A stretch of DNA of 32,000 bases from Dickeya dadantii NCPPB 898 (GTDB lineage Bacteria; Pseudomonadota; Gammaproteobacteria; Enterobacterales; Enterobacteriaceae): NCBI RefSeq assembly GCF_000406145.1, contig NZ_CM001976.1, positions 133,186 through 165,185 on the forward strand. The letters run 5' to 3'. Shown here one piece after another: positions 7,861-26,372 of this stretch. The notes beneath the pieces were generated by a model. It did not search any database. It worked only from the letters and a program-made list of their open reading frames with translations, and was not told the DNA's origin. The position numbers were made by a program, and so were the translations under genes. Within the stretch, counting starts at the first letter, position 1, and every line of letters begins with the position of its first letter.

Positions 7861-8263
7861 ACGCGGGTGCTCCTGTTGATTCTTAAGAATATTGTAGTGA
7901 GCCTGTAGAAAAAGGGTTGTGTAACTTTTTCTATACGGTTATCAGGGAAAAAGGTTTCTCTGCCATTAATTTTTCGAGTAATCAATTATTCCTCAGTGGT
8001 AAAACCAGCATAACTGACTATTTTTGAAACAAAATACGGATTTTAAGAGCGGTGTTTTATGCTGTTTGCGCCGTGTTTTACTGAGAATCCCAGTTGATTT
8101 ACAGCATAAAACTCCTGTTTAATGTCATGAATAATAAAGTCTTATTACAAACTATTGCTTATAATAGAGCCTAACTCGTTATTACTTATGAAAAAGTGTA
8201 AGTAACGACGGTTGATGACAATAATTATAGCAATATCCAAAAATGACAGATGGGGTAAAACGG

Positions 8264-9376
8264 ATGAAATTAAGCAAAGGTAAAGCGTTGCTGGTGGGAT
8301 GCCTGGCAGCGGCGATGAGCCATACGGTTAACGCTGCGGATATCAAGGTCGCGATCGTCGGAGCCATGTCCGGCCCGGTGGCGCAGTACGGCGATATGGA
8401 GTTTACCGGCGCCCGTCAGGCGATTGCCGACATCAATGCCAAAGGGGGAGTGAACGGCAACAAACTGGTGGGTGTCGAATACGATGACGCCTGCGACCCG
8501 AAACAGGCGGTTGCCGTCGCCAACAAGGTGATCAACGACGGTATTCACTACGTGATCGGCCATCTGTGCTCGTCGTCCACGCAGCCGGCATCCGACATTT
8601 ACGAGGATGAAGGCGTGATCATGATTACGCCGGCGGCCACCGCGCCTGACCTCACTACCCGTGGCTACAAGCTGGTGATGCGCACCACCGGTCTGGATTC
8701 CGATCAGGGCCCGACCGCCGCGAAATACATTCTGGAACATGTGAAACCGCAGCGCATCGCCGTGGTGCACGACAAACAGCAGTATGGCGAAGGCCTGGCC
8801 CGCGCCGTACAGGACAGCCTGAAAAAATCCAAGGCTAACGTGGTGCTGTTCGAAGGGGTGACCGCCGGGGATAAAGACTTCTCCACGCTGGTGGCGCGCC
8901 TGAAGAAAGAGAACGTCGATTTCGTCTACTTTGGCGGTTACTACCCGGAAATGGGGCAGATTCTGCGTCAGGCGCGCGCGGCCGGCCTGACCACCAAGTT
9001 CATGGGACCGGAAGGTGTGGGCAACTCGTCGCTGTCCAACATCGCGGGCGCGGCGTCTGAAGGCATGCTGGTAACGCTGCCGAAGCGTTATGACCAGGTA
9101 CCGACCAACCAGCCGATTGTGGACGCGCTGAAAGCCAAGAAACTGGATCCGACCGGCCCGTTCGTGTGGACCACGTACGCCGCGCTGCAGTCGCTGACCA
9201 CCGCGATGCAACGCACCGGCAGCACCGAGCCGGCCAAGCTGGCGGCCGACCTGAAAGCCAAGTCCGTGGACACGGTGATGGGCCCGCTGAGCTGGGATGA
9301 AAAAGGCGACCTGAAAGGGTTTGAATTTGGCGTATTCGAGTGGCACGCAGACGGTACTTCCTCTCCCGTGAAGTGA
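8264..9376 (+). CDS. livK: Periplasmic branched-chain amino acid binding protein (LivJ/LivK family)
   Basis: Start trimmed to [19 protein letters not shown] (signal peptide, AAD cleavage context). [35 protein letters not shown] and [19 protein letters not shown] match E. coli LivJ/LivK. I call it livK by its position directly upstream of livH; livJ versus livK is not resolvable here. Confidence 0.85.
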
Positions 9377-9408
9377 TTGACCGAATCCGTAATACTCCCA
9401 ATACCGAT

Positions 9409-9436
9409 GCCCCCTCAGCCGTCAGGCTGCGGGGGC
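9409..9436 (+). other. Intercistronic GC-rich hairpin between livK and livH
   Basis: 12-bp stem GCCCCCTCAGCC / GGCTGCGGGGGC with one mismatch, GTCA loop and no T tract. This is typical of stabiliser/attenuator hairpins after binding-protein genes. Confidence 0.5.
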
Positions 9437-9454
9437 AATGTCTAAGGTTAAGGT

Positions 9455-10381
9455 ATGTCCGAGCAGTTCCTCTATTTCCTTCAGCAGATGTTCAACGGCG
9501 TAACGTTGGGCAGCACCTATGCGCTGATCGCCATTGGCTACACCATGGTTTACGGCATTATCGGCATGATAAACTTCGCCCACGGCGAGGTTTATATGAT
9601 CGGTAGCTATGTTTCCTTTATCGTGATTGCCGCCCTGATGATGATGGGCATTGACGCCGGCTGGTTGCTGATTGGCGTCGCGTTCATCGCGGCGGTGGTG
9701 ATCTCCAGCGCCTACGGCTGGAGCATTGAGCGCGTGGCCTACAAGCCGGTGCGCAATTCCAAACGACTGATCGCGCTGATTTCCGCCATCGGTATGTCGA
9801 TTTTCCTGCAGAACTACGTCAGCCTGACGCAAGGGTCGCGCGACGTGGCGCTGCCGAGCTTGATCCACGGCCAGTGGGTACTGGGCGAAAGCAACGGCTT
9901 CGCCGCCACGCTCTCTTCCATGCAGCTCACCATCTGGATTGTCACTTTCCTGGCGATGCTGGCGCTGACGCTGTTTATCCGCTACTCCCGCATGGGGCGC
10001 GCCTGCCGCGCCTGCGCGGAAGACCTGAAAATGGCCAGCCTGCTGGGCATCAGTACCGACCGCGTGATTTCACTGACTTTCGTCATCGGCGCCGTGATGG
10101 CGGCGGTGGCCGGGGTACTGCTGGGCCAGTTCTATGGCGTGATTAACCCCTATATCGGCTTCATGGCCGGGATGAAAGCGTTTACCGCCGCGGTGCTGGG
10201 CGGTATCGGCAGTATTCCGGGGGCGATGATTGGCGGTCTGGTGTTGGGGATCGCCGAAGCGCTGACTTCCGCCTACCTCAGCACCGAATATAAGGATGTG
10301 GTGTCCTTCGCGCTGCTGATTGGGGTGCTGCTGGTGATGCCGACCGGGATTCTGGGCCGTCCAGAGGTGGAGAAAGTATGA
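9455..10381 (+). CDS. livH: Branched-chain amino acid ABC transporter permease LivH
   Basis: 308-aa polytopic ORF beginning [34 protein letters not shown], as in E. coli LivH. Confidence 0.93.
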
Positions 10382-11652
10382 AACTGCACACGCTGGTTAA
10401 TGCCGTTGTATCGGCGCTGGTGCTGCTGGTGCTGGCCACGTTCGTGATGGGCATGCAACTGAGTCTGGATGGGACTCAACTGGTGGTGCACGGCGCGGAA
10501 AAAGTGCGCTGGATGTGGATTATCGCCGCCTGTGTGCTGGTGTTCCTGTTTCAACTGCTGCGTCCCGTGCTGGCGCAGGGGGCGAAGAAAGTGTCCGGCC
10601 CCGGCTTGGTGCTGCCGAGTTTTGACGGCAGTACGCCGCGGCAGAAACTGCTGGCGCTGGCGCTGATCATCGCCGCCGTTGCCTGGCCGTTCGTGGTGTC
10701 GCGCGGTACGGTGGATATCGCCACGCTGACCATGATTTACATCATTCTGGGTCTTGGCCTGAACGTGGTGGTGGGGTTGTCCGGTCTGCTGGTGCTGGGA
10801 TACGGCGGTTTCTACGCCATCGGCGCTTACACCTATGCGCTGCTGAGTCACTACTACGGCCTCGGCTTTTGGCAGTGTTTGCCGCTGGCGGGCCTGACGG
10901 CGGCGCTGTCCGGTTTCCTGCTGGGATTCCCGGTGCTGCGGCTGCGCGGCGACTATCTGGCGATCGTCACCCTCGGGTTCGGCGAGATCGTGCGTATCCT
11001 GCTGCTCAACAACACCGGTTTTACCGGCGGCCCGAACGGCATCAGTCAGATTCCGAAGCCGACCTTTTTCGGCCTGGAGTTCAGCCGCTCGCCGCGCGAA
11101 GGCGGTTGGGATACCTTCCATCACTTCTTTGGCCTGACCTACGACCCCAGCGACCGCATCATCTTCCTGTACATGGTGGCGCTGTTGCTGGTGTTGCTGA
11201 CGCTGTTCGTCATCAATCGTTTGCTGCGCATGCCGCTGGGCCGCGCCTGGGAAGCGCTGCGCGAAGACGAAATCGCCTGCCGTTCGCTGGGCCTGAGCCC
11301 GACTAAAATCAAGCTGACCGCGTTTACCATCAGCGCGGCGTTCGCCGGTTTCGCCGGTACGCTGTTCGCCGCCCGTCAGGGGTTCGTCAGCCCGGAATCC
11401 TTCACCTTCGTCGAATCGGCCTTCGTGCTGGCCATCGTGGTGCTGGGCGGAATGGGCTCGCAGTTTGCGGTGATTCTGGCCGCCATTCTGCTGGTGGTAT
11501 CGCGCGAGTTGATGCGTGACCTGAACGAATACAGCATGTTGCTGCTGGGCGCTCTGATGGTGCTGATGATGATTTGGCGCCCGCAGGGGCTGCTACCGAT
11601 GAAGCGTACGCAGATCAAGTTGCAGGTTGAGAAGAAGGAAGAGCAGGCATGA
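10378..11652 (+). CDS. livM: Branched-chain amino acid ABC transporter permease LivM
   Basis: 424 aa. Long identical stretches to remembered LivM ([60 protein letters not shown]). ATGA overlap with livH. Confidence 0.93.
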
Positions 11653-12419
11653 GCACGCAGCCATTATTGTCGGTCCGGGGCCTGATGATGCGCTTCGGCG
11701 GCCTGCTGGCGGTCAACAACGTCGAGCTGGATTTGCATCAGGGCGAGATCGTGTCGCTGATCGGCCCCAACGGCGCCGGTAAAACCACCGTGTTTAACTG
11801 CCTGACCGGTTTCTACCGCCCCACCGGCGGCACCATTTTGCTGCGCGATCAGCATCTTGAAGGTTTGCCGGGCCAGCAGATTGCCCGCATGGGCGTGGTG
11901 CGCACCTTCCAGCACGTGCGCTTGTTCCGTGAGATGACGGTGATTGAAAACCTGCTGGTGGCGCAACATCAGCACCTCAAGAGCGGCGTGTTCGCCGGTC
12001 TGCTGAAGACGCCGGCGTTTCGCCGCGCCGAAGCCGATGCCCAGCAGCGCGCCGCCGTCTGGCTGGAGCGGGTGGGCTTACTTGAGCTGGCAAACCGTCA
12101 GGCGGGGAATCTGGCCTACGGCCAGCAGCGTCGGTTGGAGATCGCCCGCTGCATGGTGACCCGCCCGGAACTGCTGATGCTGGATGAACCGGCCGCCGGG
12201 CTGAACCCGAAAGAGACGGAAGAGCTTAACGAGCTGATTATCGACCTGCGCGGCAACCACCAGGTTTCCGTGCTGTTGATCGAGCATGACATGAAGCTGG
12301 TGATGGGCATTTCGGACCGGATTTACGTGGTGAATCAGGGCACGCCGCTGGCGAACGGCACCCCGGCTGAAATTCGTAATAACCCGGATGTGGTCCGTGC
12401 GTATCTGGGGGAAGGATAA
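11649..12419 (+). CDS. livG: Branched-chain amino acid ABC transporter ATPase LivG
   Basis: Walker [10 protein letters not shown], signature [12 protein letters not shown], Walker [12 protein letters not shown]. Overlaps livM by 4 nt. Confidence 0.93.
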
Positions 12420-12425
12420 AACGTT

Positions 12426-13127
12426 ATGTTGTCATTGAATCAGGTTTCTGCGCACTACGGCAAAATCCAGGCGCTGCATCAGGTCAGCCTGCATATCAAT
12501 CAGGGCGAAATCGTGACGCTGATTGGCGCCAACGGTGCGGGCAAAACCACCCTGTTGGGGACACTGTGCGGCGAGCCGCGCGCCTCGGAAGGGTCGATCG
12601 TTTTCGACGGCAAGGACATTACCGACTGGCAGACGGCGCGCATCATGCGCGAAGCCATCGCCATCGTGCCGGAAGGCCGCCGGGTATTTTCCCGCATGAC
12701 GGTGGAAGAGAATCTGGCGATGGGCGGATTTTTCGCCAGCCGCGAGCAATATCAGCAGCGCATTGCGCGCGTGTACGACCTGTTCCCGCGGTTGTATGAG
12801 CGCCGCATCCAGCGTGCGGGCACCATGTCCGGCGGTGAGCAGCAAATGCTGGCTATCGGCCGTGCGCTGATGAGCCAGCCGCGTTTGCTGTTGCTGGACG
12901 AACCGTCGCTGGGGCTGGCGCCGATCATCATTTTGCAGATTTTCGACACCATCCAGCAGCTGCGCGAAGAAGGCATGACCATCTTTCTGGTGGAGCAGAA
13001 CGCCAATCAGGCGCTGCGTCTGGCGGATCGCGGCTACGTGCTGGAAAACGGTCGCGTGGTGCTGGAAGACACCGGCGATGCTTTGTTAGCTAACGAAGCC
13101 GTGCGTTCTGCCTACCTTGGCGGTTAA
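12426..13127 (+). CDS. livF: Branched-chain amino acid ABC transporter ATPase LivF
   Basis: Walker A GANGAGKTT, signature MSGGEQQMLAIGRAL, Walker B LLLLDEPSLGLAP. Confidence 0.93.
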   Translation: MLSLNQVSAHYGKIQALHQVSLHINQGEIVTLIGANGAGKTTLLGTLCGEPRASEGSIVFDGKDITDWQTARIMREAIAIVPEGRRVFSRMTVEENLAMGGFFASREQYQQRIARVYDLFPRLYERRIQRAGTMSGGEQQMLAIGRALMSQPRLLLLDEPSLGLAPIIILQIFDTIQQLREEGMTIFLVEQNANQALRLADRGYVLENGRVVLEDTGDALLANEAVRSAYLGG

Positions 13128-13135
13128 AATCTTCC

Positions 13136-13162
13136 CGGGCCGGATTTCACCGGCCCGTTTTT
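13136..13162 (+). terminator. Rho-independent terminator of the liv operon
   Basis: Perfect stem CGGGCCGG (13136-13143) / CCGGCCCG (13150-13157), then TTTTT. Confidence 0.75.
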
Positions 13163-13197
13163 CTATCATCCTTTCAAAAAAATAAGTGAGATTCGAC

Positions 13198-14382
13198 ATG
13201 TCAACGGATGGGTTACTGGCGCAGCGTATGGCGCGCCTGAAAAGCTCCGCGATTCGTGAATTGCTCAAACACAGCAAAATGGACGGGGTGATTTCGTTGG
13301 CGGGCGGCATTCCTTCTGATGCGTTGTTTGATTTCCAGGGACTGAATGAAGCGACCCAACTGGCGATTACCGAACAGCCGAAATCGGCGTTCCAGTATGG
13401 CCTGACCGAAGGCAGCCCGCTGCTGCGTGAGCGTATCGCCGAGCTGTGCGCGCTGCGTGGCGTTCACACGCAGGCGCAGGACATCGTGGTCACCGCCGGT
13501 TCCCAGCAGGCGCTGGATCTGGTGATGCGCGCTATCACCAACCCGCAGGATATCTTTGTGGTAGAGCGCCCGACCTATCTGGCGGCGTTACAGACGCTGG
13601 AACTGGCGGAAGCGCAGGTAATGTCGGTGTCGTCCGACGAAAACGGCATGGTGGTGGACGAACTGGCCGCGCTGCTGGAAACCACGCGCATCAAAGGCGT
13701 CTATCTGGTGCCGAACTTCGGCAACCCCAGCGGCGTGACCCTGAGCGACGCGCGTCGCCGTCAACTGGTGGCGCTGGCCGCCCGCCACGATTTCCTGATC
13801 GTGGAAGATGACCCGTACGGCGAACTGCGTTTCACCGAAGAACGCCACGCCACCCTTTATCAACTGGCGAAAGAGGCCGGGCACGCCGATCGCGTGGTGT
13901 ATACCTCGTCGTTCTCCAAAATCCTGGCACCGGGGCTGCGTCTGGGCTGGGCGATTCTGCCCGACTGGCTGCTGCATAAAGTGGCGATCATCAAACAGGC
14001 CGCCGATCTGCACGCCAGCTCGCTGTCGCAGACTATCGTCGAATACTATCTGGGTACCGGGCGCTTGCCGGCGCAGATTGACAAGATCCGTCAGGCTTAT
14101 CGCCAGAAAGGCGAACTGCTGTCCGAACTGATGGTCAGTGAGCTGGGCGATGTGATCAGCTTCAATCAGCCGAAAGGCGGCATGTTCCTGTGGGCGCGTT
14201 TCCGTCAGCCGTTCGATACCACCGCCTGGCTGCAAAAAACGCTGGCGCAGGGCGTGGTGTTCGTGCCCGGCGAGTTCTTCTTTGCCGATAATCCGGACCA
14301 GTCAACGCTGCGCCTGTCGTTCGCCACCGCGACCGAAGAGCAGATGCACGAGGCGGTTGCCCGCCTGCGTCGCGCGCTGTAA
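13198..14382 (+). CDS. PLP-dependent aminotransferase, class I/II (ARO8 / 2-aminoadipate-transaminase-like, no DNA-binding domain)
   Basis: ~394 aa. LKSSAIRELLK, ISLAGGIP, NPSG, IVEDDPYGELRF and SSFSKILAPGLRLGW (the PLP lysine) are fold-type I aminotransferase motifs. The start could instead be GTG 13186. Confidence 0.8.
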   Translation: MSTDGLLAQRMARLKSSAIRELLKHSKMDGVISLAGGIPSDALFDFQGLNEATQLAITEQPKSAFQYGLTEGSPLLRERIAELCALRGVHTQAQDIVVTAGSQQALDLVMRAITNPQDIFVVERPTYLAALQTLELAEAQVMSVSSDENGMVVDELAALLETTRIKGVYLVPNFGNPSGVTLSDARRRQLVALAARHDFLIVEDDPYGELRFTEERHATLYQLAKEAGHADRVVYTSSFSKILAPGLRLGWAILPDWLLHKVAIIKQAADLHASSLSQTIVEYYLGTGRLPAQIDKIRQAYRQKGELLSELMVSELGDVISFNQPKGGMFLWARFRQPFDTTAWLQKTLAQGVVFVPGEFFFADNPDQSTLRLSFATATEEQMHEAVARLRRAL

Positions 14383-14512: not shown

Positions 14513-16150
14513 CTAATGCGTAGCCAACTGCTGGCCGGCGACCGGTACTAACGAGTGCTCGTCCGCGGTGTCCAGCCGCTTGCGGGAAATCACGTCGTCC
14601 ACCACGAACACGCTGATGACCTCCACCAGATGCGCCGCCTGATGATTCAGGTTGTCGGTAGCACAGGCGGATTCTTCAACCAGCGCCGCATTTTGGTGGG
14701 TAACCTGATCCAGTTGAGCGATGGCGGTGTTAATCTGCGCTATGCCTTGCTGCTGTTCGTTGGTGGTGATGCCTATCTCGTTGATCAGTTGCGCCACCTG
14801 ACGGGATTGCTCCAGCAGTTCGCTGATGGTGCTGCCCGCCAGATTGACCCGATCTGCCCCGGTTTCGATCTTCTTCACGCTTTCGATGATCAGCGATTTT
14901 ATTTCGCGGGCGGCGGAGGCGGAGTGCTGCGCCAGCGAACGCACCTCGTGAGCGACGACCGCAAAGCCTTTGCCTTCTTCGCCCGCCCGAGCCGCCTCGA
15001 CCCCGGCGTTCAGCGCCAGGATGTTGGTCTGGAAGGCAATATTGTCGATCAGGCTGATAATTTCGACGATTTGATGTGAGCTTTGGGTGATGTCCGCCAT
15101 GGTAGCGACCACGTCCCCCACGACCTGATTGCCTTTTGATGCCGTCTGGCTGGTGGCGTTGGCCAGCTCAGCCGCCATCCTGATGGTTTCGACGTTATGG
15201 CTGACCGCGTTGCTGATTTGCTCCATGGACGCCGCGGTTTGTTGCAGACTGGCGGCCTGCTCTTCGGTGCGCTGGCTGAGGTCATTCGTGCCGGCGGCGA
15301 TTTCATTGGCGCCCGAGGCGATCGCATGGCTGCTCTGACTGACCTGCTCGACGATGTTGATCAGCCCGCCGCGCATCTGGTCGATGGCGGCCAGCACGCT
15401 GCTGTTGTCTTTATCCCGTATTGGGATGGTCGTGATCAGGTTGCCCTGTGCGATTTGCTGGGCGATGCTGGCGGCATCCGCTGGTTCGCCGCCCAGCTTG
15501 CTTCTCACCTGTCGGGTGATAAACCAGGCCACCAGACAGCCTATTGCCATAGCGATGAGCGCCAGCGTCAGCATGGTTTGCCCGGCGCTATCCGCCCGCT
15601 GTTCCGAGCTGTGCGCCAGGTCGGCGGTGGCGTTTTTCTGATAATTGATAATATCATCAATGGCGTCGAAGACTTTATTTTGCGCCGGCTGGAATTCATT
15701 CAGAATAACCGCTTTTGCCTCTTCATCCTGGTTTTCCAATGCCAGCGCTTCAGCCTTTTTCAATGCCTGAATATTTTCAGGCCGTACGCTTTCCAGATTT
15801 TTCAATAATACTTTCGCATCTGGGGAAACGGTCATACTGCTGAATGTATTGATGATCTCTGTGCTTTTATCAATGGTTTCCCTGATGCGTTTACTTTCCG
15901 CTGCCATTTGCGCCTGATCGGTCATCATGACCATATTTCGAATGGCGTTGGCGACGATATTAATATTGTCTTTGTAGTTATGGATAAGTACCAGTTTCAC
16001 TAATCGGTTTTGCGCGAGCGTTTCGATATTTCCGCTTAACTGGTGCAATTGAAAACGACCGAAACTGGCGACCAGAAAGCCAATGATAATGACGGCGGCG
16101 AAACTAATACTGAGCAGCGTGCCCAATTTCATCTTTTTGAATAAGTTCAT
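14513..16150 (-). CDS. Methyl-accepting chemotaxis protein, 4-helix-bundle-type sensor (MCP1, most divergent paralog)
   Basis: Start trimmed to [10 protein letters not shown]. It has TM1, a ~160-aa helical periplasmic region, TM2 ending AWFITRQ, and HAMP. Signalling motifs are [26 protein letters not shown], the tip [22 protein letters not shown], and [10 protein letters not shown]. There is no C-terminal pentapeptide. Confidence 0.9.
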
Positions 16151-16777
16151 AATCTTTCTTGCCTGTGTGTAGACGCCCGCGTGCACGACGGCGATGCCAG
16201 AACGAAAGGGGGATCACGCCGCCGTCGCTATCACGGTTAAGGCCTGACATGCCCGTTATTTATTGGGTTGTGACCCTTTTTTCCGATGTTTTTGTTGCAG
16301 GTTGGTCGCCCCGGCACTCAACGACAACATCTGCCTGCGGTCTTAAACTGGCTCCGCGAGCGCTGAATGTTTGCGTTCAATGACGAGGCGCAGACGCATG
16401 TACCATGCACGCCCGTTAAAGGACACCGCCACGCTACTCTTTGGTCTGGTGCTGGACCCTCGCTCAAGCGGGCGAGAGCAAAAAGAATGGATGCTGGCTT
16501 AGGCATACGTTACGCATCATGCGGGTGCAGCCTGGATTCAGGCTTGTCGAACCGCGCCGTTCTATCCGAACGGCAGCGACAAGCGATGATTATTTGAACT
16601 ACTCATTTGACTATGAGCGGCGTTTTGCCGTTTGTCTAATCACCTCCCGGTGTATTTTTTGTCGACAAGGCCGGGAGGCGCTCGGGTGACCTGACTCGGC
16701 CCGGCGAGCACGCCCAACCACGTGTATGGCATCGCCTGACGGTTCACATATATTTATGTTTTAACAGACCACAGGCC

Positions 16778-16804
16778 TAAAGGCGGCGGGCGCGGTGCCG
16801 TTAT
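16778..16804 (+). promoter_or_regulatory. Candidate sigma-28 (FliA) promoter for the orphan gene
   Basis: TAAAGGCG (16778-16785), an 11-nt spacer, then GCCGTTAT (16797-16804). The remembered consensus is TAAAGTTT-N11-GCCGATAA. It lies ~105 nt upstream of ATG 16910. Confidence 0.55.
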
Positions 16805-16909
16805 GTTTCAATATATGTCAGAAAGACTCTGCCTGATGGCGCGTGATTACACCTCCCAGGCTCTTCGTCTTTGCTGATGGACCATTACCGGCACTGCATA
16901 GGATTTCCG

Positions 16910-17827
16910 ATGACTTCTCCCATCTCTTTCAACCGTTCTGCCGCGGGTACGTCAGCGCAGAATGCCAGGACCGATAACGACGCCGGTAGTACGGCTCGTG
17001 CCGGCGCGCAAGCCGATGCTTCTCAGGAACAACCGTCGGTCACCTCCGTGCTGGTGCAATTCAGCGACGAGGTCCGTAAGCGGATTGATAGCGCAATGCG
17101 GACCAATATGAGCAAAATTAACGAGTCTAAACAGGATCTGGCTCGTGGGCGCATCGAAGAAATCAAACGGCGCATCCAGATGCTGAAGATGATGATGATG
17201 ATGTCGCCCGGTCAGTCGGTTCCTCCCGGCGTACTGCGCGAGATTCGCCAACTGGCCGCAGAGCTGGGCCAGGCGGCGAAAACCTTGAATGACGGCGGGG
17301 GAAACGGCGTGGCTAATGCCGGAACCGCGGGCGGGGAAGGCTCGTCCGGCGCCGTTGCCAATGGCGTCGGCGATGCTTCCGCTTCTGCGTTGTCCGGGGC
17401 GATGTCCGTGTCTGCCGCAGGTGAGAACGCGTCTGCCGAATCCGATGGTCTGGGGGGCGAAGACCAGGCTGTCGGCGCGTCGCCGGTGGCAAAAAGCGGT
17501 GAGGAGGCATCCGCGCAGGAGGCGGAGCAATTGCAGAACGTGGTGGCTGCAATTACCGAGCGGGGAGCCGGGTCGCAGCAGCGCCGGATGGATGCGAAGT
17601 TGGTACAGGACGCCGTTCGCGAGCTGAAATCGCTGCTCGCGATGGTGAAAAATGCCAGCAAAAATGACGACAAAGAAGCCCAGAAGCAGATTCAGGCTAT
17701 CAATCAATCTATTGCCGATATTGAGAAGACGGTTCAGTCGATGAACATGACGGGAAGCGGGGCGGACATCAGCGTCGATCTGTCTGTCGGCCCAGCGGGT
17801 AATGTCTCGATTGATGTGCAGGTCTGA
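16910..17827 (+). CDS. Orphan acidic Gly/Ala/Ser-rich protein with two helical segments; function unknown
   Basis: 305-aa ORF from ATG 16910, with AGGA 6 nt upstream. The track ORF begins 13 codons earlier at a TTG. Codon usage is host-like. It has no Cys/Trp/Tyr/His. I recognise no family with confidence. Confidence 0.7.
   Translation: MTSPISFNRSAAGTSAQNARTDNDAGSTARAGAQADASQEQPSVTSVLVQFSDEVRKRIDSAMRTNMSKINESKQDLARGRIEEIKRRIQMLKMMMMMSPGQSVPPGVLREIRQLAAELGQAAKTLNDGGGNGVANAGTAGGEGSSGAVANGVGDASASALSGAMSVSAAGENASAESDGLGGEDQAVGASPVAKSGEEASAQEAEQLQNVVAAITERGAGSQQRRMDAKLVQDAVRELKSLLAMVKNASKNDDKEAQKQIQAINQSIADIEKTVQSMNMTGSGADISVDLSVGPAGNVSIDVQV
17189..17203 (+). repeat. (ATG)5 trinucleotide repeat encoding Met5 inside the orphan gene
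   Basis: Read directly: ctgaag ATGATGATGATGATG tcg, giving LK-MMMMM-S. Confidence 0.95.
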
Positions 17828-17861
17828 CAGTCAGGCGTGCAGCGCGGCGGCGTGCAATGAT

Positions 17862-17893
17862 TCGGGGAGTCGGCATTCTTTCCTCCTCCCCGA
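17862..17893. other. Hairpin between the convergent orphan gene and MCP2
   Basis: 8-bp stem TCGGGGAG / CTCCCCGA with a 16-nt loop. No clear T tract on either strand. Confidence 0.3.
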
Positions 17894-17925
17894 TGACTTG
17901 CTCGGTGTACCGCTTGCGCCGTAGG

Positions 17926-19545
17926 TTAGCGTGACGCCAACGCCAGACGCCAGTCGCCGCCGTGTGAACACTGAGGCTGAGCGGCGTGACCGTCGAGTAC
18001 GAACACATTCATCAGTTGCACCAGATGACCGGCCTGAGCGTTCAGGCTGTCGGCGGCACTGGCGGACTGCTCCACCAGCGCGGCGTTCTGCTGGGTGACC
18101 TGATCGAGCTGGCTGACCGCCTGATGGATCTGGCCGATGCCGGACTCCTGCTCGGTGGTGGTCACTCCGATTTCCTTAATCAATTCAGCGACATGATGGG
18201 CCTGAGAAACAATCTCTTCCATCGTGACGCCCGCATGGCCGACGCGTTGCGAACCGCTTTCCACCTTTTCCATGCTCTCGGTGATCAGTTCTTTGATTTC
18301 CCGGGCGGCGGAAGCGGAGCGCTGCGCCAGCGAACGCACCTCGCCGGCCACCACCGCGAAGCCGCGGCCCTGCTCGCCGGCGCGAGCGGCTTCCACCGCC
18401 GCATTCAGCGCCAGAATGTTGGTCTGGAAAGCAATGCCGTCGATAACGCTGATAATATCGCCGATTTTACGTGAACTGCTGGTGATCTCCTCCATGGTGC
18501 GGATGACGTCGCTCACCACTTCGCTGCCTTTGGCGGCCGTCTGGCTGGCGGTGGTGGCAAGCTGGGCGGCTTCGCGCACCGTATCGCCGTTCTGGCGAAT
18601 GGTCTGGCTGATTTGTTCCATTGAGGCGGCGGTTTGTTGCAGGCTGGCAGCCTGCTCTTCGGTGCGCTGGCTGAGATCGGCGTTGCCGATGGCGATCTGC
18701 TGCGAGCCGGTGGCGATGGATTCGCTGCTCTGGCGTACCTGACTGACGATATGGCTAAGGCTGTCGCGCATGGTGCGCATGGCGGCCAGCAGGCTGTGGT
18801 GGTCGCTGGTTTTCAGCATGACATCAATGGACAGGTCGCCCTGCGCCACCTGCTGGGCGATATGCGAGGCATAGGTCGGCTCGCCGCCCAGTTGTCCTTT
18901 CACCCGGCGGGTGATCAGCCAGGCCACCAGCGCGCCCAGTAGGGCGCTGATAGCGGTTACGATCAACAGCAGGGTGCCGGAATAGCTGGCATCCGCCATG
19001 AAACGCTGAGACATGGCGATGGTGTCGTTTTTGTGTTCGGTGATCATGGTGTCCATGGCGTTGAACAGCGTGGTCTGCGTGGTCAGCAGGTCGCCCAGAA
19101 TCAGCGCGCGGGCTTGCTCCTGCTGGCCGGACAGGCTCAGTTCAATCACTTTTCGCACCGCGTTGGAATAAGGCGGGCGCGCCTGATTAATTTGCGCCAG
19201 TAATTCGCGTGATTTTTTCAGCTTCAGTTTTTCATCCAACTGCCTGAGTAAGTCGTTGTTACGGTCGATGAGCTGTTCGAGATCGTGCTTTTCCTGAGCG
19301 AGGTGAGCGGCGTCGGTCTGTATGGCGCTTTCCCGAATAATGCGGGCGGCCGCATTCAGATTGTCTTTAATTTCCTGCATGGCGATCAGGTTATTCAGGC
19401 GAATATTGGACAGGTAATCCAGATTATTGCCCACATGAATTAGCTGGCTGCGCCCGAAAATCGCGACGATAAAACCGATCAGGATGACCAGTATAAAACC
19501 GGATCCGAGCATCGCGCCGAGCTTCATATTTTTTAGTATCTGCAT
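17926..19545 (-). CDS. Methyl-accepting chemotaxis protein, 4-helix-bundle-type sensor (MCP2)
   Basis: Start trimmed to [10 protein letters not shown] (AAGG upstream). TM2 ends AWLITRR. It has [42 protein letters not shown] and [10 protein letters not shown], and ends ..DWRLALASR with no pentapeptide. Confidence 0.92.
17995..18921. repeat. Direct repeat copy A (~0.93 kb, MCP2 HAMP + signalling module)
   Basis: Aligns base for base with 20188-21114 at a constant offset of 2193 nt. 18314-18437 is identical over 124 nt by my count. Confidence 0.85.
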
Positions 19546-19917
19546 TATGTGCCTTATTCTATTGGGTATTGCTGTCATCAATAGATTCGCATCCCTGGTG
19601 TGAAGCGAACTGTGTGTATTGGTCAATGATGGGTGCCGGCGGAAAGACTCTGCCGAAACAATCTATGGCGAATTGATCTCAACCTGTTAGCGGTGGGTAG
19701 CGAAATGATTTTTTAGTTAATTAACTTTTTAACAAAATGTATGCATTTGTTTACCGTGACAACATGCAGAAGGCTGGGCGGAATATAAAAGCAGGCTATT
19801 ATTAACTGATAAAAAATATCATCCGCTAAAGCATTTAACGCCATTAAACATTATGGCCGATGAACGCGTATGCACCGGCGGAAAATGGGGTCAGCGCAAC
19901 GCGAATAATTCAGGGTA

Positions 19918-20045
19918 TATACCCGTCATACTTCAAGTTGCAGGTGTGTTGGCTGCGTTCGTTCACCCGAATCACTTACCCGAGTAAGCTCATCGGGATT
20001 CACTCCCTTGCCGCCTTACTGCAACTCGAATTATTTAGGGTATAC
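19918..20045. repeat. ERIC (enterobacterial repetitive intergenic consensus) element
   Basis: 128 bp with TATACCC...GGGTATA termini. The core TCACCCGAATCACTTACCCGAGTAAGCTCATCGGGATTCAC matches the remembered ERIC2 primer site at about 17/22 and the ERIC1R site at 18/22. Confidence 0.85.
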
Positions 20046-20109
20046 GGCGTCTTTATGGGGAAATGGAATGCGTTTTCCGCTTCCCCACGGTATTAATCAG
20101 AACGGTGGA

Positions 20110-21738
20110 TTAGCCTGATGTCAGCGCCAGACGTAAATCGGCCCGGGGAGGATACGCGGCGTGCTCGTCTTGCCGGTTATTTCCCGCGACCACAAATACA
20201 TTCATCAACTGCACCAGATGGCGGGCTTGATCGCTCAGGCTGTCGGCGGCGCTGGCGGACTGCTCCACCAGTGCGGCGTTCTGCTGGGTGACCTGATCGA
20301 GCTGGTTAACCGCCAGATTAATCTGGCTGATGCCGGATTCCTGCTCGGTCGTCGTGACGCCGATTTCCTTGATCAGATCGGCGACGTGGCGCGCCTGCGT
20401 CACGATATCGTCCATAGTGGTGCCCGCGTGACCGACCAGTTGCGAACCGCTTTCCACCTTTTCCATGCTCTCGGTGATCAGTTCTTTGATTTCCTGGGCG
20501 GCGGAGGCGGAGCGCTGCGCCAGCGAACGCACCTCGCCGGCCACCACCGCGAAGCCGCGGCCCTGCTCGCCGGCGCGAGCGGCTTCCACCGCCGCATTCA
20601 GCGCCAGAATGTTGGTCTGGAAAGCAATGCTGTCGATGACGCTGATAATGTCGCCGATTTTGCGCGAGCTGGCGGTAATGTCGCCCATAGTGCGGATGAC
20701 ATTGCTTACGACTTCGCTGCCTTTGGCGGCGGTATCGCTGGCGGTGGTGGCGAGCTGGGCGGCTTCACGCACCGTTTCGCCGTTCTGGCGGATGGTCTGG
20801 CTGATTTGCTCCATTGAGGCGGCGGTTTGTTGCAGGCTGGCGGCCTGCTCTTCGGTGCGTTGGCTGAGGTCGGCGTTGCCCATCGCAATCTGCTGCGAGC
20901 CGGTGGCGATGGATTCGCTGCTCTGGCGCACCTGACTGACGATATGGCTGAGGCTGTCGCGCATGGTACGCATGGCTGCCAGCAGGCTGTGGTGGTCGCG
21001 GGTTTTCAGCATGACATCGACGGACAGGTCGCCCTGTGCCACCTGCTGGGCGATATGCGAGGCATAAGTCGGCTCGCCGCCCAGTTGCCCCTTGATGCGA
21101 CGGGTAATCAGCCAGGCAATCAGACTGCCGGTGACGGCAATCAGCGCCGCCAGCGACAGCATCAGTATACCGGCGTTGCTGGCTCGTGATTCCGAGTCGT
21201 CAGCCGTGGTGGAAGTGGCGCTCTTCTGGTAGGCCAGCAGGCTGTCGATAACCTTGAACATGTTCTCCTGAGCGCGGCGCACGTCGGTGAGGATCAAGTT
21301 TCTTGCATCGTCGTCTTTATTCTCCAGCCCTTTCTCGATCGCTCTTCCTACCGCATCCTCATAAACAGGACGGTTTTGGTCCAACTGAGCTATCAGGGCC
21401 TGCTGTTCAGGGGTGACTGCCACTTTATGGAGGATGGCGATAATGTCGTCATTTCTGGGCGCCATGTTATCGAGACGCTGTTTTTCAACGATCATTTGTT
21501 GGTGATCGGAAAGCAACGCAATATTTCTGATTACCCGGGCGGCAATATTCAGATTATCTTTGTATTCCTGTATCAACAGCAGATTGGTGATCCGCTCTTT
21601 TGATAACGTCTGAATATTTGTACTGAGCTGCCGTAACTGTAACTGACCATAAATCGCTACCAGAAAACCGATAACGATTACCATTGCGAACCCGGTGCCT
21701 AACATGGAGCCTAGCTTCATTTCTTTAAAAAAACGCAT
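20110..21738 (-). CDS. Methyl-accepting chemotaxis protein, 4-helix-bundle-type sensor (MCP3)
   Basis: [10 protein letters not shown] start (AGGTGA upstream). TM2 ends AWLITRR. The signalling module is nearly identical to MCP2. It ends ..DLRLALTSG with no pentapeptide. Confidence 0.93.
20188..21114. repeat. Direct repeat copy B (~0.93 kb, MCP3 HAMP + signalling module)
   Basis: Partner of 17995-18921. Confidence 0.85.
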
Positions 21739-21778
21739 AACGTCACCTTTTTTATATAAGATTTATTTTTATCCCTGA

Positions 21779-21910
21779 TATACCCGTCATACTTCGCGTT
21801 GCAGGTGCGTTGGTTTCGTTATCGGCCTTTTCAGCTTCATCCCATTCAGGGCTGTGGCAAGCCGCGTTGAACTCTGCCTCCTTTCTGCAATTCGAATTAT
21901 TTTGGGTATA
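21779..21910. repeat. ERIC-like chimera: ERIC termini with a replaced core
   Basis: The left ~40 nt (TATACCCGTCATACTTCgcGTTGCAGGTGcGTTGG) and right ~30 nt (CTGCAAtTCGAATTATTTtGGGTATA) match the ERIC copy at 19918-20045. The central ~60 nt is unrelated. Confidence 0.75.
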
Positions 21911-22031
21911 GATATTGGCTTCCGTAGCGTGTTTCAGGCAATAACAAGACCGCTGGCGAAATTTTTTCGTCAGGGAAAGGTTGGCCTGCAGGTGTGTATT
22001 AGACCGTTAATTTACTAATTGATTAATAATT

Positions 22032-22081
22032 CTAATCAAGATGAGAAGCATATAAACTAATCAAGATGAGAAGTGTATAAA
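22032..22081. repeat. 25-bp tandem direct repeat, two copies (CTAATCAAGATGAGAAG(CA/TG)TATAAA)
   Basis: Read directly: 22032-22056 and 22057-22081 differ at 2 adjacent bases. Confidence 0.9.
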
Positions 22082-22509
22082 AATTATCCTCGGGTGTTTT
22101 TAATACCCGAAATGAATGCTCTTCCTAAGCAAATTGCAGTATGGAGGGTTTTTACGTGTTTGTCGACAAATCGTGATAAAAGTTTTTCTTATTACTCAAT
22201 GACTTTTCTACTAACGTAATTAGAAGCAATTTTTTAATGGAAGTTACAAAAAATAAATACTCAATCAAAGACCTGCATTTTGTGATGGTATGAAAATTAT
22301 CGTGATATAAAAATGGCTCCTTTTGATATTTACTGATGACATTTATTCGCCATTATTAAAGCAATATGCTTTGTATGGTTATTTGGACTGTAGCCGTAGC
22401 CATTATCCGTTGCCAGTGCTGTCGCTGGTTTTAGCCGGGTGCTGGCGCTTTGGCACTTGTTTTCTGTGGTTCATCGGTGGCGCAGGAAGCGGTTTGTCAG
22501 GGAGGACTG

Positions 22510-22545
22510 GATTCGAAAAGAAACCGCCACGGTTACCGTGGCGGT
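22510..22545 (-). terminator. Rho-independent terminator of MCP4
   Basis: On the minus strand: ACCGCCACGG-TAA-CCGTGGCGGT, followed by TTCTTTTCG. It lies 17 nt after the stop codon. Confidence 0.75.
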
Positions 22546-22561
22546 CAGGAGAACGGGAAAT

Positions 22562-24223
22562 TTAGAACTGTTCCCAGTTGTGGGTACTGCCTTTATTCGC
22601 CAGCGCCGGTTTTTTTAGTGCTGGCGAGGTGTGTGACTGTTGCCGGGGCGACGTCTTGCTAAACGTGCCGTGAATAGTAAATACGCTCATCAGTTCCACC
22701 AGTTTTGCCGCCTGATCGCTCAGGCTGTCGGCGGCGCTGGCGGATTCTTCAACCAACGCGGCGTTTTGCTGGGTTGCGCTGTCCATCTGAGTGATGGCCT
22801 GATTGATTTGCGAAATACCGGATTCCTGTTCCTGTGTGGTGACGCCGATTTCGCTAATCAGATTGGCGACATGCTGCGCCTGGGTGACGATATCAACCAT
22901 GGTTTCACCGGCGTGCGCCACTAACTGGGAGCCGCTTTCCACTTTTTCCATACTGGTGGTGATGAGCTCTTTAATTTCCCGAGCGGCGGAGGCGGATCGC
23001 TGCGCCAGATTTCTCACCTCGCCGGCCACCACCGCGAAGCCGCGGCCTTGTTCGCCGGCGCGGGCCGCTTCCACCGCGGCGTTGAGCGCGAGGATATTGG
23101 TCTGGAAGGCGATGCTGTCAATCACGGTAATGATGTCGCCAATCTTACGGGAACTGGTGCTGATGTCGCTCATCGTGGTGATCACGTTGCGTACGACTTC
23201 GTTGCCTTTGGTGGCGGTCTGGCTGGCCGCGCTGGCGAGTTGAGCGGCTTCGCGTACGGTGTCGCCATTCTGGCGGATAGTCTGGCTAATCTGCTCCATA
23301 GAGGCGGCGGTCTGCTGTACGCTGGAAGCCTGCTCCTCAGTGCGGCGGCTCAGATCGTTGCTGCCGATGGCAATTTCGCTGGAGCCGGTGGAAATGGACG
23401 CGCTGCTATCGTGCACCTGCTGCACAATCCCGCTTAGTCTGGCGCGCATATCATTCATGGCGGCCAACAGGCTGGTGGTATCGCCCGATTGCAGTTCGAC
23501 GTTGATGGCCAGATTGCCGCTGGCAATCTGACTGGCAATATCAGAGGCATACGCAGGCTCACCGCCCAGCAGTTTTTTGATTCTGCGGGCAATCAACCAG
23601 GCAATGGCGATGCCGAGTACCGTCGAGATACCGGCGAATGTCAGCATCAGCATGCCGGCGAAGCTCGCGGACTGGCCCGCCTCGTCAGCCGAACGCCGGG
23701 TGTCGCTTTTTTGGTAGCTCACCATGTCGTTGATGGCTTTGAAGTAAGTGTCCTGAGCCGGTTTCACTTCATTCATGATGACGGCTTTGGTTTCATCCGG
23801 CTTGTTATCCTGGATGAATGACAAGGCTTTTTGCGTGGCGGCGAGGCTGGCTGGACGAGCCTGATCTATCACATCAAACAGCGCTTTTTCACGGGGAGTG
23901 CTCGCCAGTTCGGCGATGCGCTTTAGAATTTCGTTATTTCGTGTAATTGTTTTCGTAATCAGCTGTTTTTCCTGCGCTACCTGATCCGGTGCGATAAACA
24001 GCGTCAGGTTGCGTATCGAAATCGCGACGCTGTTCAGGTTATCTTTCAGTTCCTGCACCAGTAGTAGCCCTTCCAGTTGATCGCCGGCTAATGCGTTGAC
24101 ATTGTCGCTTTGCTGCCGCAATTGAAATTGCCCATAGGTAGAGACAAAGAAACTAATAATCAGCACGATGGCGAAACCGGTGCCGAGCATGGTAGTAAGT
24201 TTCATGTTCTTAATAATGCTCAT
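22562..24223 (-). CDS. Methyl-accepting chemotaxis protein, 4-helix-bundle-type sensor, NWEQF pentapeptide (MCP4)
   Basis: [10 protein letters not shown] start (GGGGA upstream). TM2 ends AWLIARR. It has [22 protein letters not shown] and [10 protein letters not shown], and ends ..[10 protein letters not shown]. Confidence 0.93.
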
Positions 24224-24435
24224 GGTTTATCCCCTAAGTGTTATTTTTAATCACGACAAACCGGTGCGTATAAAACAGAGCTAATAAAAATGCTGACAGG
24301 TTATTTGTGATTTCGGGGATTAATTTAGTTGATGAATCTTTGTTATATCTTAAGAGGTGAAGAATTAATTGGTTTTATTTTTTGTTTTTTATTATCAATG
24401 TTTTATTTTTTTATTATCATCTTCGTGATGCTCGT

Positions 24436-24469
24436 TTAATAATAGTTATGCTATTAATAATAGTTATGC
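24436..24469. repeat. 16-bp motif TTAATAATAGTTATGC repeated at an 18-bp period, two copies
   Basis: Read directly at 24436-24451 and 24454-24469, in the AT-rich spacer ~215-245 bp upstream of the MCP4 start. Confidence 0.85.
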
Positions 24470-24639
24470 GCGTGACTTTATATCGGTTGACGATATTTAA
24501 AATTGGGGAAAAGCGTTTTTCAACAAAGACGAGTGTGACTGTTGAAAGGCGATGAATGTCGGGTAATAGACAGTGTTTTAAAATAGTTGCTTATCCCAAT
24601 GGGGTCCGCCGTTGATAAGGTTTCGGTTATCAGGGGCTG

Positions 24640-24673
24640 AATTCAGAAGATACCGCCACGTAGCCGTGGCGGT
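24640..24673 (-). terminator. Terminator hairpin of MCP5
   Basis: On the minus strand: ACCGCCACG-GCTA-CGTGGCGGT, then ATCTTCTGAATT. The stem sequence is identical to that of the MCP4 terminator. Confidence 0.6.
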
Positions 24674-24689
24674 CAGAGGAAAGATAAAC

Positions 24690-26372
24690 TCAGAATTGTT
24701 CCCAGTTGCTGTTGCTGGCGTTATTCGCCAGCGCCAGTTTGGATGGCATCGGTTTTTTCTGGCCGGTTCCCGGTGTTTGCAGCAGGGTGGTTTGGTGGTT
24801 AAAGGTATTCTGAATATTGAATATGCTCATCAGTTCCACCAGCCGTGCTGCCTGGTCGCTCAGGCTGTCGGCGGCGCTAGCCGACTCTTCCACCAGAGAG
24901 GCGTTCTGCTGGGTGACCTGATCGAGCTGGTTAACCGCATCGTTAATCTGCGAAATGCCGGATTCCTGCTCGTGGGTAGTCACGCCGATCTCGCCAATCA
25001 AATCCGCTACGTGACGCGCCTGTTTCACCAGTTCGTCAATGGTGGACCCGGCTTCGCTCACCAGCGTTGAGCCGGTTTCCACTTTTTCGACGCTGGCCGT
25101 GATCAACTCCTTGATTTCCTTGGCGGCGGAAGCGGAGCGCTGCGCCAGATTTCTCACCTCGCCCGCCACCACGGCAAAGCCGCGGCCCTGTTCGCCGGCG
25201 CGGGCGGCTTCTACCGCGGCGTTGAGCGCCAGAATGTTGGTCTGGAAGGCAATACCGTCGATGACGCTGATAATGTCGCCGATTTTGTGCGAACTGACGG
25301 AGATATCTTCCATAGTGCGGACGATATTGTTGACGGCTTCACCCCCTTTGGCGGCGGTCGAGCTGGCCGACTGCGCCAGTTTGGTGGCGGTGCGCACGGT
25401 ATCGCCGTTCTGGCGGATGGTCTGACTCATCTGCTCCATGGAGGCGGCGGTCTGTTGCAGGCTGGCGGCCTGTTCTTCGGTGCGCTGGCTCAGGTCGGTG
25501 CTGCCGGCGGCGATTTCGCTGGCGCCGGTGGCGATGGATTCGCTGCTCTGGCGTACCTGAGTGACGATCTGCCCCAGTTTTTCCCGCATGTCGTTCATGG
25601 CCGCCAGCACGCTGTGATCGTCGCCCGCGCGCAGTTCGACGTTAAACGCCAGATTGCCGTCGGAAATTCGCTGGGCAACCGCCGCCGCGTAAACCGGCTC
25701 GCCGCCCAGTTGGCCTTTGACGGTGCGGGTGATCAGCCAGGCGGTCAGCGCGCCGAGCACCGCGGCGACCAGCGCCAGCGCCAGCATTAATGTGCCGTCT
25801 GAACGGGCGTTCTGCATTGAATCCGCCACCACGTTCATGGTGATTTTTTTCTGGAAGTCGAGCATGTTGTCCAGCGCTTTGAACACGCCGTTCTGAGCGG
25901 TTTGCATGTCGTTGAGAATCAGTTCGCGAGCTTGCTCGCGCTGCTCTGACTGGCCGGAAATACCCAATTGAACCGCATTATTGAATGCCTTCAGGTAAGC
26001 GGGGCGCGCCAGCGTCAGCTGGTTCAGCTGGTCGCGGGTTTCCGGCGTATCAAGCCGCTCCGACAGCTGTTTGAGCACCTCGGTGTTGCGGGCGATTTGC
26101 CGGTCGATCAACTGCTTTTCACGCGCGATGCGTTCAGGGTCGTTACTGAGCGCAATATTACGCACCAGACGGGAATTGGTATCGAAGCCGGTTTTGGCTT
26201 CCTGAATCAACATCATATTGGTGAGCGTGGTGGTGGAGAGGTGGTCGATGTCGTCCCCCAGTCCTGCCAGTTGGGTTCGGCCGAATGTTGCTACCAGCAG
26301 GCCGATCACGATGACCAGGGCGAATCCGGCACTCAGCATGGTGCCCAGTTTGGTTTTTTTCAGCGCGTTCAT
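24690..26372 (-). CDS. Methyl-accepting chemotaxis protein, 4-helix-bundle-type sensor, NWEQF pentapeptide (MCP5)
   Basis: Start trimmed to [10 protein letters not shown] (AAGGA 5 nt upstream). TM2 ends AWLITRT. It has [22 protein letters not shown] and [10 protein letters not shown], and ends ..[10 protein letters not shown]. Confidence 0.92.

Follow-up and report, generated by a model that had tools for sequence, protein, structure and literature searches.

Flagellar regulons have been charted best in Escherichia coli and Salmonella, and both lack the protein family described here. The described proteins that it most nearly recalls are FlgM, FlxA, and FlaG; in polar flagellates, FlaG is a late flagellar protein that undergoes export and acts as a competitor at FlhA (PMC11536152). 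We analyzed a 32,000-nucleotide stretch of Dickeya dadantii NCPPB 898 (contig NZ_CM001976.1, positions 133,186 to 165,185; hereafter the window), focusing on a forward-strand gene at 16910–17827 whose product an earlier note had presented as an orphan linked to a FliA (sigma-28) promoter. The gene belongs to a family that is widespread yet undescribed, with no Pfam or NCBIfam model covering its members, and in part of this family a sigma-28-type promoter accompanies the gene from genus to genus.

The open reading frame (ORF) extends from ATG 16910 to the TGA at 17825–17827 and encodes 305 residues (31 kDa, pI 4.9), with a Shine-Dalgarno AGGA (16900–16903) 6 nt ahead of the ATG. The protein contains no Cys, Trp, Tyr, or His and two Phe, together with 47 Ala, 35 Ser, and 31 Gly, and its first 12 residues, MTSPISFNRSAA, include no acidic residue. 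Recomputation thus bore out the ORF, the AGGA spacing, the four missing residue types, and the two Phe that had been noted earlier. The GC content at third codon positions was 0.67, compared with 0.67–0.75 in the flanking chemoreceptor genes. The closest database protein was a D. dadantii entry with 99% identity, and the orthologue in strain 3937 was Dda3937_02024 (ADM96362.1; 98% protein identity). Because the N-terminal sequence M-T/S-S-P-I-S was kept throughout the family, in both the alignment and the N-terminal residue statistics, ATG 16910 was taken as the start codon. The conserved N-terminus begins at this ATG, and hence both the 318-residue product starting at TTG 16871 and the 341-residue product annotated in strain 3937 are too long; the original strain 3937 record, ADM96362.1, carries a 36-residue over-extension at the N-terminus. 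The ORF is a genuine gene of D. dadantii. Two reverse-strand ORFs overlapping it, at 16952–17707 (251 aa) and 17212–17673 (153 aa), are probably shadow ORFs of GC-rich coding DNA.

To define the family, we performed a profile search covering 1.84 billion cluster representatives. This search yielded 297 proteins at E ≤ 1e-3, 82 at E ≤ 1e-10, and 22 at E ≤ 1e-30, nearly all of the 297 being 260–360 aa in length and aligning end to end. Named members came from Pseudomonas (P. fulva, P. mangiferae, and others), Achromobacter ruhlandii, Rheinheimera, Terasakiella, and a Pseudomonadota metagenome-assembled genome, and many further members came from metagenomes, with environmental and aquatic bacteria included. 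The family therefore spans flagellated alpha-, beta-, and gamma-Proteobacteria, which refutes the orphan status. Dickeya was the only genus of Pectobacteriaceae with the gene, basal aquatic Dickeya species included. Members are named "hypothetical" in databases or, wrongly, "TolA". A word-index search with the ORF returned Dickeya proteins and one metagenomic protein at 42% identity, and a second one with the family alignment returned Dickeya and no new genus. The scan of genome contigs gave two Dickeya loci and nothing else, and searches of plasmids and phages gave no relatives. One Logan assembly entry (P0048; 311 aa) was Dickeya-like with a 75-residue N-terminal extension and diverged completely after approximately residue 183, which looks like a frameshift or assembly error.

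Next, we examined the region upstream of the gene. The sequence at 16778–16804 reads TAAAGGCG-N11-GCCGTTAT, in which the two elements show the correct sigma-28 spacing and agree with a pattern of the type TAAA(G)-N15-GCCGATAA. On both strands of the window, this site was the sole match to TAAA-N14-16-GCCGNTA (expected number, 0.16) and also the sole match to the stricter TAAAG-N14-GCCGWTAW (expected number, 0.11). We then aligned the regions upstream of the gene, up to approximately 700–730 nt, from five Dickeya species. These regions were essentially unalignable apart from a block that starts exactly at CTAAAG, which was invariant. The spacer following the −35 element was fixed in length and variable at nearly every position, the conserved block resumed at TGCCGTTATGTTTCAA after the spacer, and the −10 sequence TGCCGTTAT was invariant. 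Invariant elements separated by a variable spacer of fixed length, as in this alignment, are the footprint classically left by promoters with two elements.

For strain 3937, published mapping of transcripts placed the start of transcription at the same promoter. In Table S1 of Forquet et al. 2022 (PMC9239193), Dda3937_02024 forms monocistronic transcription unit 71, with a start site at 160628 that is classified as "strong+pred", accounts for 100% of the start signal of the unit, and sits 99 nt upstream of the ATG at 160727. Transferred to the window, this start falls on 16811, 7 nt past the −10 element, and the discriminator of strain 3937, GTTTCAA, is identical to window positions 16805–16811. 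The start at approximately 16811 that had been predicted beforehand coincides with this mapped site. The same table prints a sigma-28 promoter for Dda3937_02024 whose −35 element, spacer, −10 element, and discriminator are identical to those of the window, and lists a "strong" termination site at 161718, 74 nt past the stop codon (PMC9239193). A simple terminator scan was empty at 17863–17901 because the hairpin there lacks a T run. The leader is conserved among Dickeya and can fold into a long stem-loop; the consensus fold of five aligned Dickeya sequences contained 28 pairs, 6 of them with compensatory changes; the z-score of the single-sequence fold was only −1.0, so that the fold is not exceptional, and an Rfam search of the leader gave no match. 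Two GGA motifs, at 16871–16873 and in the Shine-Dalgarno sequence, may be RsmA/CsrA sites.

To extend the comparison beyond Dickeya, we performed a core-anchored sigma-28 scan of the 300 nt upstream of each gene, for which the measured background was 23 hits in approximately 293 kb, or approximately 0.024 expected per 300-nt region. The motif was found in nine of the 11 loci, namely, the five Dickeya loci and L003, L008, L012, and L013. The distant homologue at L003 was preceded by TACAGAAT-N11-GCCGTTAT, with a −10 element identical to that of the window, and the Pseudomonas gene at L008 by TCAAGTTG-N11-GCCGATAC, directly past the terminator of the upstream gene. The Rheinheimera locus (L012) showed TTAAGTTT-N11-GCCGATAA, and L013 showed TAAAGGCG-N12-GCCGATAG. 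Weaker variants preceded the Achromobacter gene (TAAAGAAG-N12-GCCGTACA) and the gene at L018 (TTAAGTTC-N12-ACCGTTAT). Outside Dickeya the neighbors were unrelated housekeeping or stress genes that differed from genus to genus, indicating that the promoter travels with the gene. The promoter at 16778–16804 is a genuine sigma-28-type promoter, as the earlier note had proposed, given the uniqueness of its core motif, its conservation in Dickeya, the mapped start, and its recurrence in other genera.

We then obtained structural information by building an AlphaFold2 model on a 60-sequence alignment (mean predicted local distance difference test score [pLDDT], 71; predicted template modeling score, 0.58); a first model from Dickeya sequences agrees with it. 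Four confident helices were predicted at residues 53–98, 106–131, 198–249, and 255–283, forming two helical hairpins, together with disorder at residues 1–45 and 133–191 and a low-confidence beta hairpin at residues 288–304. The segment layout read earlier from the sequence agrees with these models. In the family, residues 2–25 contain 24% Ser plus Thr and 5.7% Asp plus Glu. Hairpin 1 has a net charge of +5 in the window protein and the conserved family motif RK..AR.R...IK.RI..LK ... LRE..QLA.EL.QAA, and hairpin 2 has the motif QR..DA...A...LK.LLA..K..L...D.E..K. Aligned with each other by hhalign, the two hairpins were in register (E 7.5e-4, probability 25%), which suggests an internal duplication. 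The Ala/Ser/Gly/Glu-rich linker between them varies from 46 to 102 aa across the family, is unalignable between genera, and contains 16.6% Asp plus Glu versus 2.1% Lys plus Arg. At the C-terminus, the family consensus is G-x-S-[IVL]-[SDN]-[VI]-x-[AV]-COOH, with hydrophobic residues at −1, −3, and −5 in 91 of 137 members. Family-wide, Cys accounts for 0.07% of residues, Trp for 0.16%, Tyr for 0.56%, His for 0.74%, and Phe for 1.0%; in the helical core Cys drops to 0.0%, and the aromatic depletion holds there too. Neither a signal peptide nor a transmembrane segment was evident in the translated 305-residue sequence. An LKMMMMMS run (17183–17200; residues 92–97), pointed out in the earlier note, was confined to D. 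dadantii and the species closest to it. The corresponding residues are MMLLSLAG in other Dickeya and LK.L....G in the family consensus, and the Met run thus does not characterize the family.

Pfam and NCBIfam scans of the ORF and of 60 family members found nothing at the curated thresholds, and the matches obtained from Pfam, NCBIfam, PHROGs, and PADLOC were coiled-coil or low-complexity noise (AIP3, SbcC, LmuB, SMC, TolA, and HLH). A profile search of PDB sequences returned designed coiled coils only, and Foldseek against the PDB returned nothing below E 0.8.

Taken as a whole, these features are best explained by a non-essential accessory protein of the late flagellar regulon that is possibly exported by the flagellar type III system, a tentative account that we place somewhat short of an even chance. 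The gene would be a monocistronic, late (class 3-type) member of the regulon that RNA polymerase with sigma-28 (FliA) transcribes from the 16778–16804 promoter, with a start at approximately 16811. Transcription by this polymerase, which is inferred, would mean that the product is made only once completion of the hook-basal body releases FliA. The flagellar type III export apparatus might then handle it as a late substrate or docking factor, in the manner of FlgM or FlaG, with the disordered N-terminus and the terminal peptide motifs serving export or docking and the helical core acting as a functional or binding module. The protein would be a soluble accessory factor and not a structural or signaling component needed for motility. 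Its disordered N-terminus, lack of Cys, aliphatic-only helical core, and terminal peptides resemble late type III cargo, and the disorder of residues 1–45, the lack of a Sec signal, and the zero Cys content are traits of type III substrates, which are necessary but not specific. The docking role is speculative, and so is the export step, which by our estimate is by itself somewhat doubtful.

Published fitness and secretome data bear on this account. In transposon insertion sequencing (Tn-seq) of strain 3937 (Royet et al., PMC6637903, Table S1), Dda3937_02024 was non-essential in LB medium and showed a log2 fold change of −0.83 in chicory (p 0.54, q 1). In that screen the scores of flagellar structural, motor, and che genes ranged from −4 to −7, and none of the individual chemoreceptor mutants scored (PMC6637903). 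The gene is thus not needed for flagella at the level that plant colonization requires; pooled Tn-seq can mask the loss of a secreted factor. The host-interaction role that the earlier note had entertained found no support, given the occurrence of the family in aquatic bacteria and the absence of a chicory fitness effect. In the secretome of D. solani (PMC8775594), FlgM, FliC, FliD, FlgK/L, and FliK fell 20–50-fold in a dsbA mutant that lacks flagella; every flagellar export substrate in that table is Cys-free. The orthologue, which in D. solani IPO2222 is 83% identical, could hide among its 66 "uncharacterized" entries. At least two of these fell 30–40-fold, A0A6N0BHR3 (ratio 0.024) and A0A6N0AJT5 (0.033), like FlgM and FliC (PMC8775594, Table S2); each of them may be the orthologue, or else an unrelated substrate of type II secretion. 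Our literature search by accession and locus tag found no main-text mention of Dda3937_02024, the SigmoID paper gives a FliA profile for Dickeya and Pectobacterium and makes no statement on this gene, and the supplements of random-barcode transposon sequencing (RB-TnSeq) studies contained no "TolA" entry. The gene and its start site were already in databases and in a supplementary table, and it appears that nobody has discussed them.

Several observations weigh against a FliA-dependent, exported product. The plain consensus count of the site at 16778–16804 is 11 of 16, which is chance level (approximately 26 such sites per shuffled window), with the −10 element off consensus at two of eight positions and the −35 element at three of eight. 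This 16-position count is uninformative, and the core-anchored scan with its measured background was used in its place; accordingly, what supports the promoter is its core motif, the location and conservation of that motif, and the published start. The "sigma28" label in PMC9239193 was assigned automatically by bTSSfinder, which labels other sites of the table laxly (140 labels, some of them poor), and so the mapped start, not the label, was counted as evidence. No clear enteric-type sigma-28 motif lay upstream of the four most distant members examined (L014–L017), and the claim of a co-travelling promoter is therefore limited to the closer gamma- and beta-proteobacterial part of the family. 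FliA dependence of Dda3937_02024 is highly probable, as judged solely from motif and position; our literature search found no fliA-mutant transcriptome containing the locus tag. As for export, the models predict with confidence that the core folds into a helical bundle, a lack of Cys and aromatic residues is also typical of cytoplasmic coiled-coil and disordered proteins, and a chaperone-like gene (FliS-, FlgN-, or FliT-like) was conserved beside the gene in none of the loci examined. A missing chaperone gene is weak evidence, since FlgM too has no dedicated adjacent chaperone in some systems. The D. solani secretome and proteome tables (PMC8775594) contained no entry named TolA or "cell envelope biogenesis", and the absent Tn-seq phenotype says nothing positive about function.

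The same regulation could also serve a protein that stays in the cytoplasm as an elongated coiled coil and serves the late motility programme as an adaptor or regulator; this is the main rival, to which we give only a slightly lower chance than to the exported account. Its targets might be the motor or switch, the chemosensory array, FliA, or second-messenger effectors, with the terminal peptides binding partners and the acidic linker acting as a flexible spacer. The confident helical bundle, the translation free of evident signal peptide or transmembrane segment, and the lack of a chaperone gene nearby all favor this location, as does hairpin 1, whose basic character and strong conservation suggest a surface for binding; the peptide at the extreme C-terminus, also conserved, resembles a docking motif, and a pooled Tn-seq result without phenotype is expected for a modulator. 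Moreover, most known sigma-28-dependent accessory genes of enterobacteria, as in the regulons of E. coli and Salmonella, encode cytoplasmic proteins. However, the near-total lack of Cys and aromatic residues, which extends into the folded core, is more typical of type III substrates, as is a disordered N-terminus of 45 residues rich in Ser/Thr, and none of the 60 members scanned showed similarity to known cytoplasmic motility regulators. A narrower form of the export account, which we consider rather unlikely, takes the protein as late cargo or a gate-docking regulator of the export apparatus, that is, a soluble FlgM/FlaG-like checkpoint or modulator of filament assembly. The conserved N- and C-terminal peptides would then engage the export gate, and the family would have been overlooked because it is absent from E. 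coli and Salmonella.

Descent from known proteins or use of another secretion route accounts for the data less well. The ORF matched the FlgM model TIGR03824 over residues 14–82 (E 0.035; 14.9 bits versus a cutoff of 40.75), the best member reached E 0.0023, and the disordered N-terminus leads into an S-V-x-L-S-D/E motif and then R-[IV]-E-x-[IL]-K-x-x-I, as if the protein were a diverged FlgM paralogue acting as a second anti-sigma-28 factor with a C-terminal extension. This is very unlikely: such matches occurred in two of the 60 members, Pfam FlgM did not match, the protein is three times as long as FlgM, and the hhalign probability between the family and FlgM alignments was 1.4%, on which FlgM homology was rejected. 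Type I (ATP-binding cassette, ABC) secretion through the C-terminus is more improbable still. An acidic, Cys-free, Gly/Ser/Asp-rich protein without an N-terminal signal peptide would suit that route, and the terminal D-V-Q-V ([SDN]-[VI]-x-[AV] in the family) loosely recalls the secretion signals of Erwinia chrysanthemi proteases, with their acidic-plus-hydrophobic motif at the C-terminus; against this stand the usually polar residue at −2, the absence of repeats-in-toxin (RTX) sequences, and loci of which none examined had an adjoining ABC transporter or membrane-fusion gene. We know of no link between sigma-28 control and type I secretion. A harpin-like or injectisome (Hrp) substrate acting in plant interaction, conceivable for a Gly/Ser-rich, Cys-free, heat-stable-looking protein of a plant pathogen, is largely refuted by the absence of any harpin family match in the ORF and 60 members, by a promoter of sigma-28 type and not an HrpL box, by relatives in Rheinheimera, Terasakiella, Achromobacter, and environmental metagenomes, and by the neutral chicory result (PMC6637903). 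Finally, the database name, weak matches of two of the 60 members to the TolA model PRK09510, and the location among chemoreceptor genes could suggest either a cell-envelope protein of the TolA kind or the decayed remnant of a neighboring chemoreceptor gene, and both are refuted for practical purposes. The real tolA of strain 3937 is a separate and essential gene, Dda3937_00556 (PMC6637903), the TolA label was rejected because the ORF has neither a membrane anchor nor TolA domain III (the C-terminal domain), and the weak matches are attributable to Ala/Glu/Lys-rich low complexity. Derivation from a chemoreceptor was likewise rejected, as the family profile was negative against all five neighboring chemoreceptors, BLASTP gave E >1, and there was no Pfam match.

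Coordinates of the gene, its promoter, transcript, and protein segments, and of the flanking genes, in the window
Feature	Position	Strand	Basis or remarks
Sigma-28 (FliA) promoter, −35 element TAAAGGCG	16778..16785	+	Pattern matches; invariance of CTAAAG; strain 3937 table
Sigma-28 promoter, −10 element GCCGTTAT	16797..16804	+	Preceded by 11-nt spacer; invariance in Dickeya; strain 3937 table
Transcription start site	16811	+	Transferred from strain 3937 start 160628
5′ untranslated leader	16812..16909	+	99 nt including the start base; stem-loop ~16817–16878; AGGA 16900–16903
Coding sequence	16910..17827	+	305 aa plus stop; orthologue of Dda3937_02024; family conservation
Disordered Ser/Thr/Ala-rich N-terminus, residues 1–45, with M-T/S-S-P-I-S peptide	16910..17044	+	pLDDT <50
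S-V-x-V-x-[LF]-S motif and basic helical hairpin 1 (helix 53–98, loop, helix 106–131), residues 46–131	17045..17302	+	pLDDT 89–98
Acidic Gly/Ala/Ser low-complexity linker, residues 132–197	17303..17500	+	pLDDT 38–47
Helical hairpin 2 (helix 198–249, loop, helix 255–283), residues 198–283	17501..17758	+	pLDDT 83–98
C-terminal tail with conserved strand motif, residues 284–305, ending N-V-S-I-D-V-Q-V-COOH	17759..17824	+	Family consensus
Transcript 3′ end	17863..17901	+	Hairpin CGGGGAG-N16-CTCCCCG at 17863–17892; transferred termination site ~17901
Chemoreceptor gene, Dda3937_02023 orthologue (divergent flank; context only)	14513..16186	−	Pfam MCPsignal and 4HB_MCP_1
Chemoreceptor gene, Dda3937_02025 orthologue (convergent flank; context only)	17926..19626	−	Pfam

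The gene lies between chemoreceptor genes in all six Dickeya loci, so that its description as embedded in a chemoreceptor array holds within this genus; elsewhere, where the neighbors are unrelated, it does not, and the adjacency is a Dickeya-specific accident of location. In strain 3937, Dda3937_02023 has its own start site, labelled sigma-70, and Dda3937_02025 belongs to the separate transcription unit 72 (PMC9239193). The window carries five paralogous 4HB-type chemoreceptor genes at 14513–26399, all on the reverse strand, with 51–69% mutual identity and long upstream regions, none of which contained a good sigma-28 match; in strain 3937, the three following the first were mapped as one unit with internal starts (PMC9239193). 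The intergenic region 16187–16777 is unusually long (approximately 600–780 nt, depending on the chemoreceptor start) and nearly unalignable among Dickeya species. Further upstream, 8243–14382 holds a liv-type operon for an ABC transporter of branched-chain amino acids and, after it, a class I/II aminotransferase gene (Dda3937_02022), of which the last four genes were checked against Pfam; livHMGF and the aminotransferase gene share one transcription unit in strain 3937 (PMC9239193). At L017, a tRNA-like sequence, recognized by eye only, lies at approximately 5800–5900 on the reverse strand directly upstream of the family member.

A late flagellar-regulon accessory protein is not surprising in kind. 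What is new here is the definition of the family, its breadth, the co-travelling sigma-28 promoter, the architecture of the protein, and the ruling out of FlgM, FlxA, harpin, and TolA as labels. That the sigma-28 promoter has stayed with the gene as it moved among genomes from three proteobacterial classes points to an unstudied late flagellar accessory function. If exported or gate-docking, the protein would be a new player in the control of filament assembly or sigma-28 activity, and if cytoplasmic, a new motility modulator. The family definition and the promoter make a clean genetic test straightforward in strain 3937 with Dda3937_02024. In addition, hundreds of "TolA" database entries are misnamed.

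Among known proteins, TolA resembles the present one in Ala/Glu/Lys-rich helical low-complexity stretches only, and the name "TolA" or "cell envelope biogenesis protein TolA" on most Dickeya entries and one Pseudomonas fulva entry is an annotation error. The harpins HrpN and HrpW of Dickeya and Erwinia are likewise Gly/Ser-rich, Cys-free, acidic, and partly disordered, but they show no homology to the family, which has a sigma-28-type rather than HrpL promoter and occurs in non-pathogens. FlxA of E. coli is similar as the helical, Cys-poor product of a FliA-dependent stand-alone gene with no assigned function, although it is approximately 110 aa in length versus 305 aa. The FlxA model (PF14282) did not match the ORF at E up to 1 and was absent from the 25 most frequent families of the 60 members; the earlier decision to assign neither an FlxA nor a harpin family was thus sound. 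FlgM (PF04316/TIGR03824) shares sigma-28 control, a Cys-free and aromatic-poor composition, an N-terminal half that is disordered and rich in Ser/Thr and leads into helices, a short resemblance at S-V-x-L-S and R-[IV]-E-x-[IL]-K, and dispensability for flagellar assembly, whereas the present protein adds two folded helical hairpins, an acidic linker, and a C-terminal strand motif in a chain three times as long. With FlaG there was no Pfam match in the ORF or the 60 members, and FlaG genes lie in flagellin clusters whereas those of the present family stand alone. FlaG is nevertheless similar in that it is small, plays an accessory part in the late programme, can be dispensed with in assembly, and has a patchy distribution, and it provides a model for how a protein of this family might act at the export gate.

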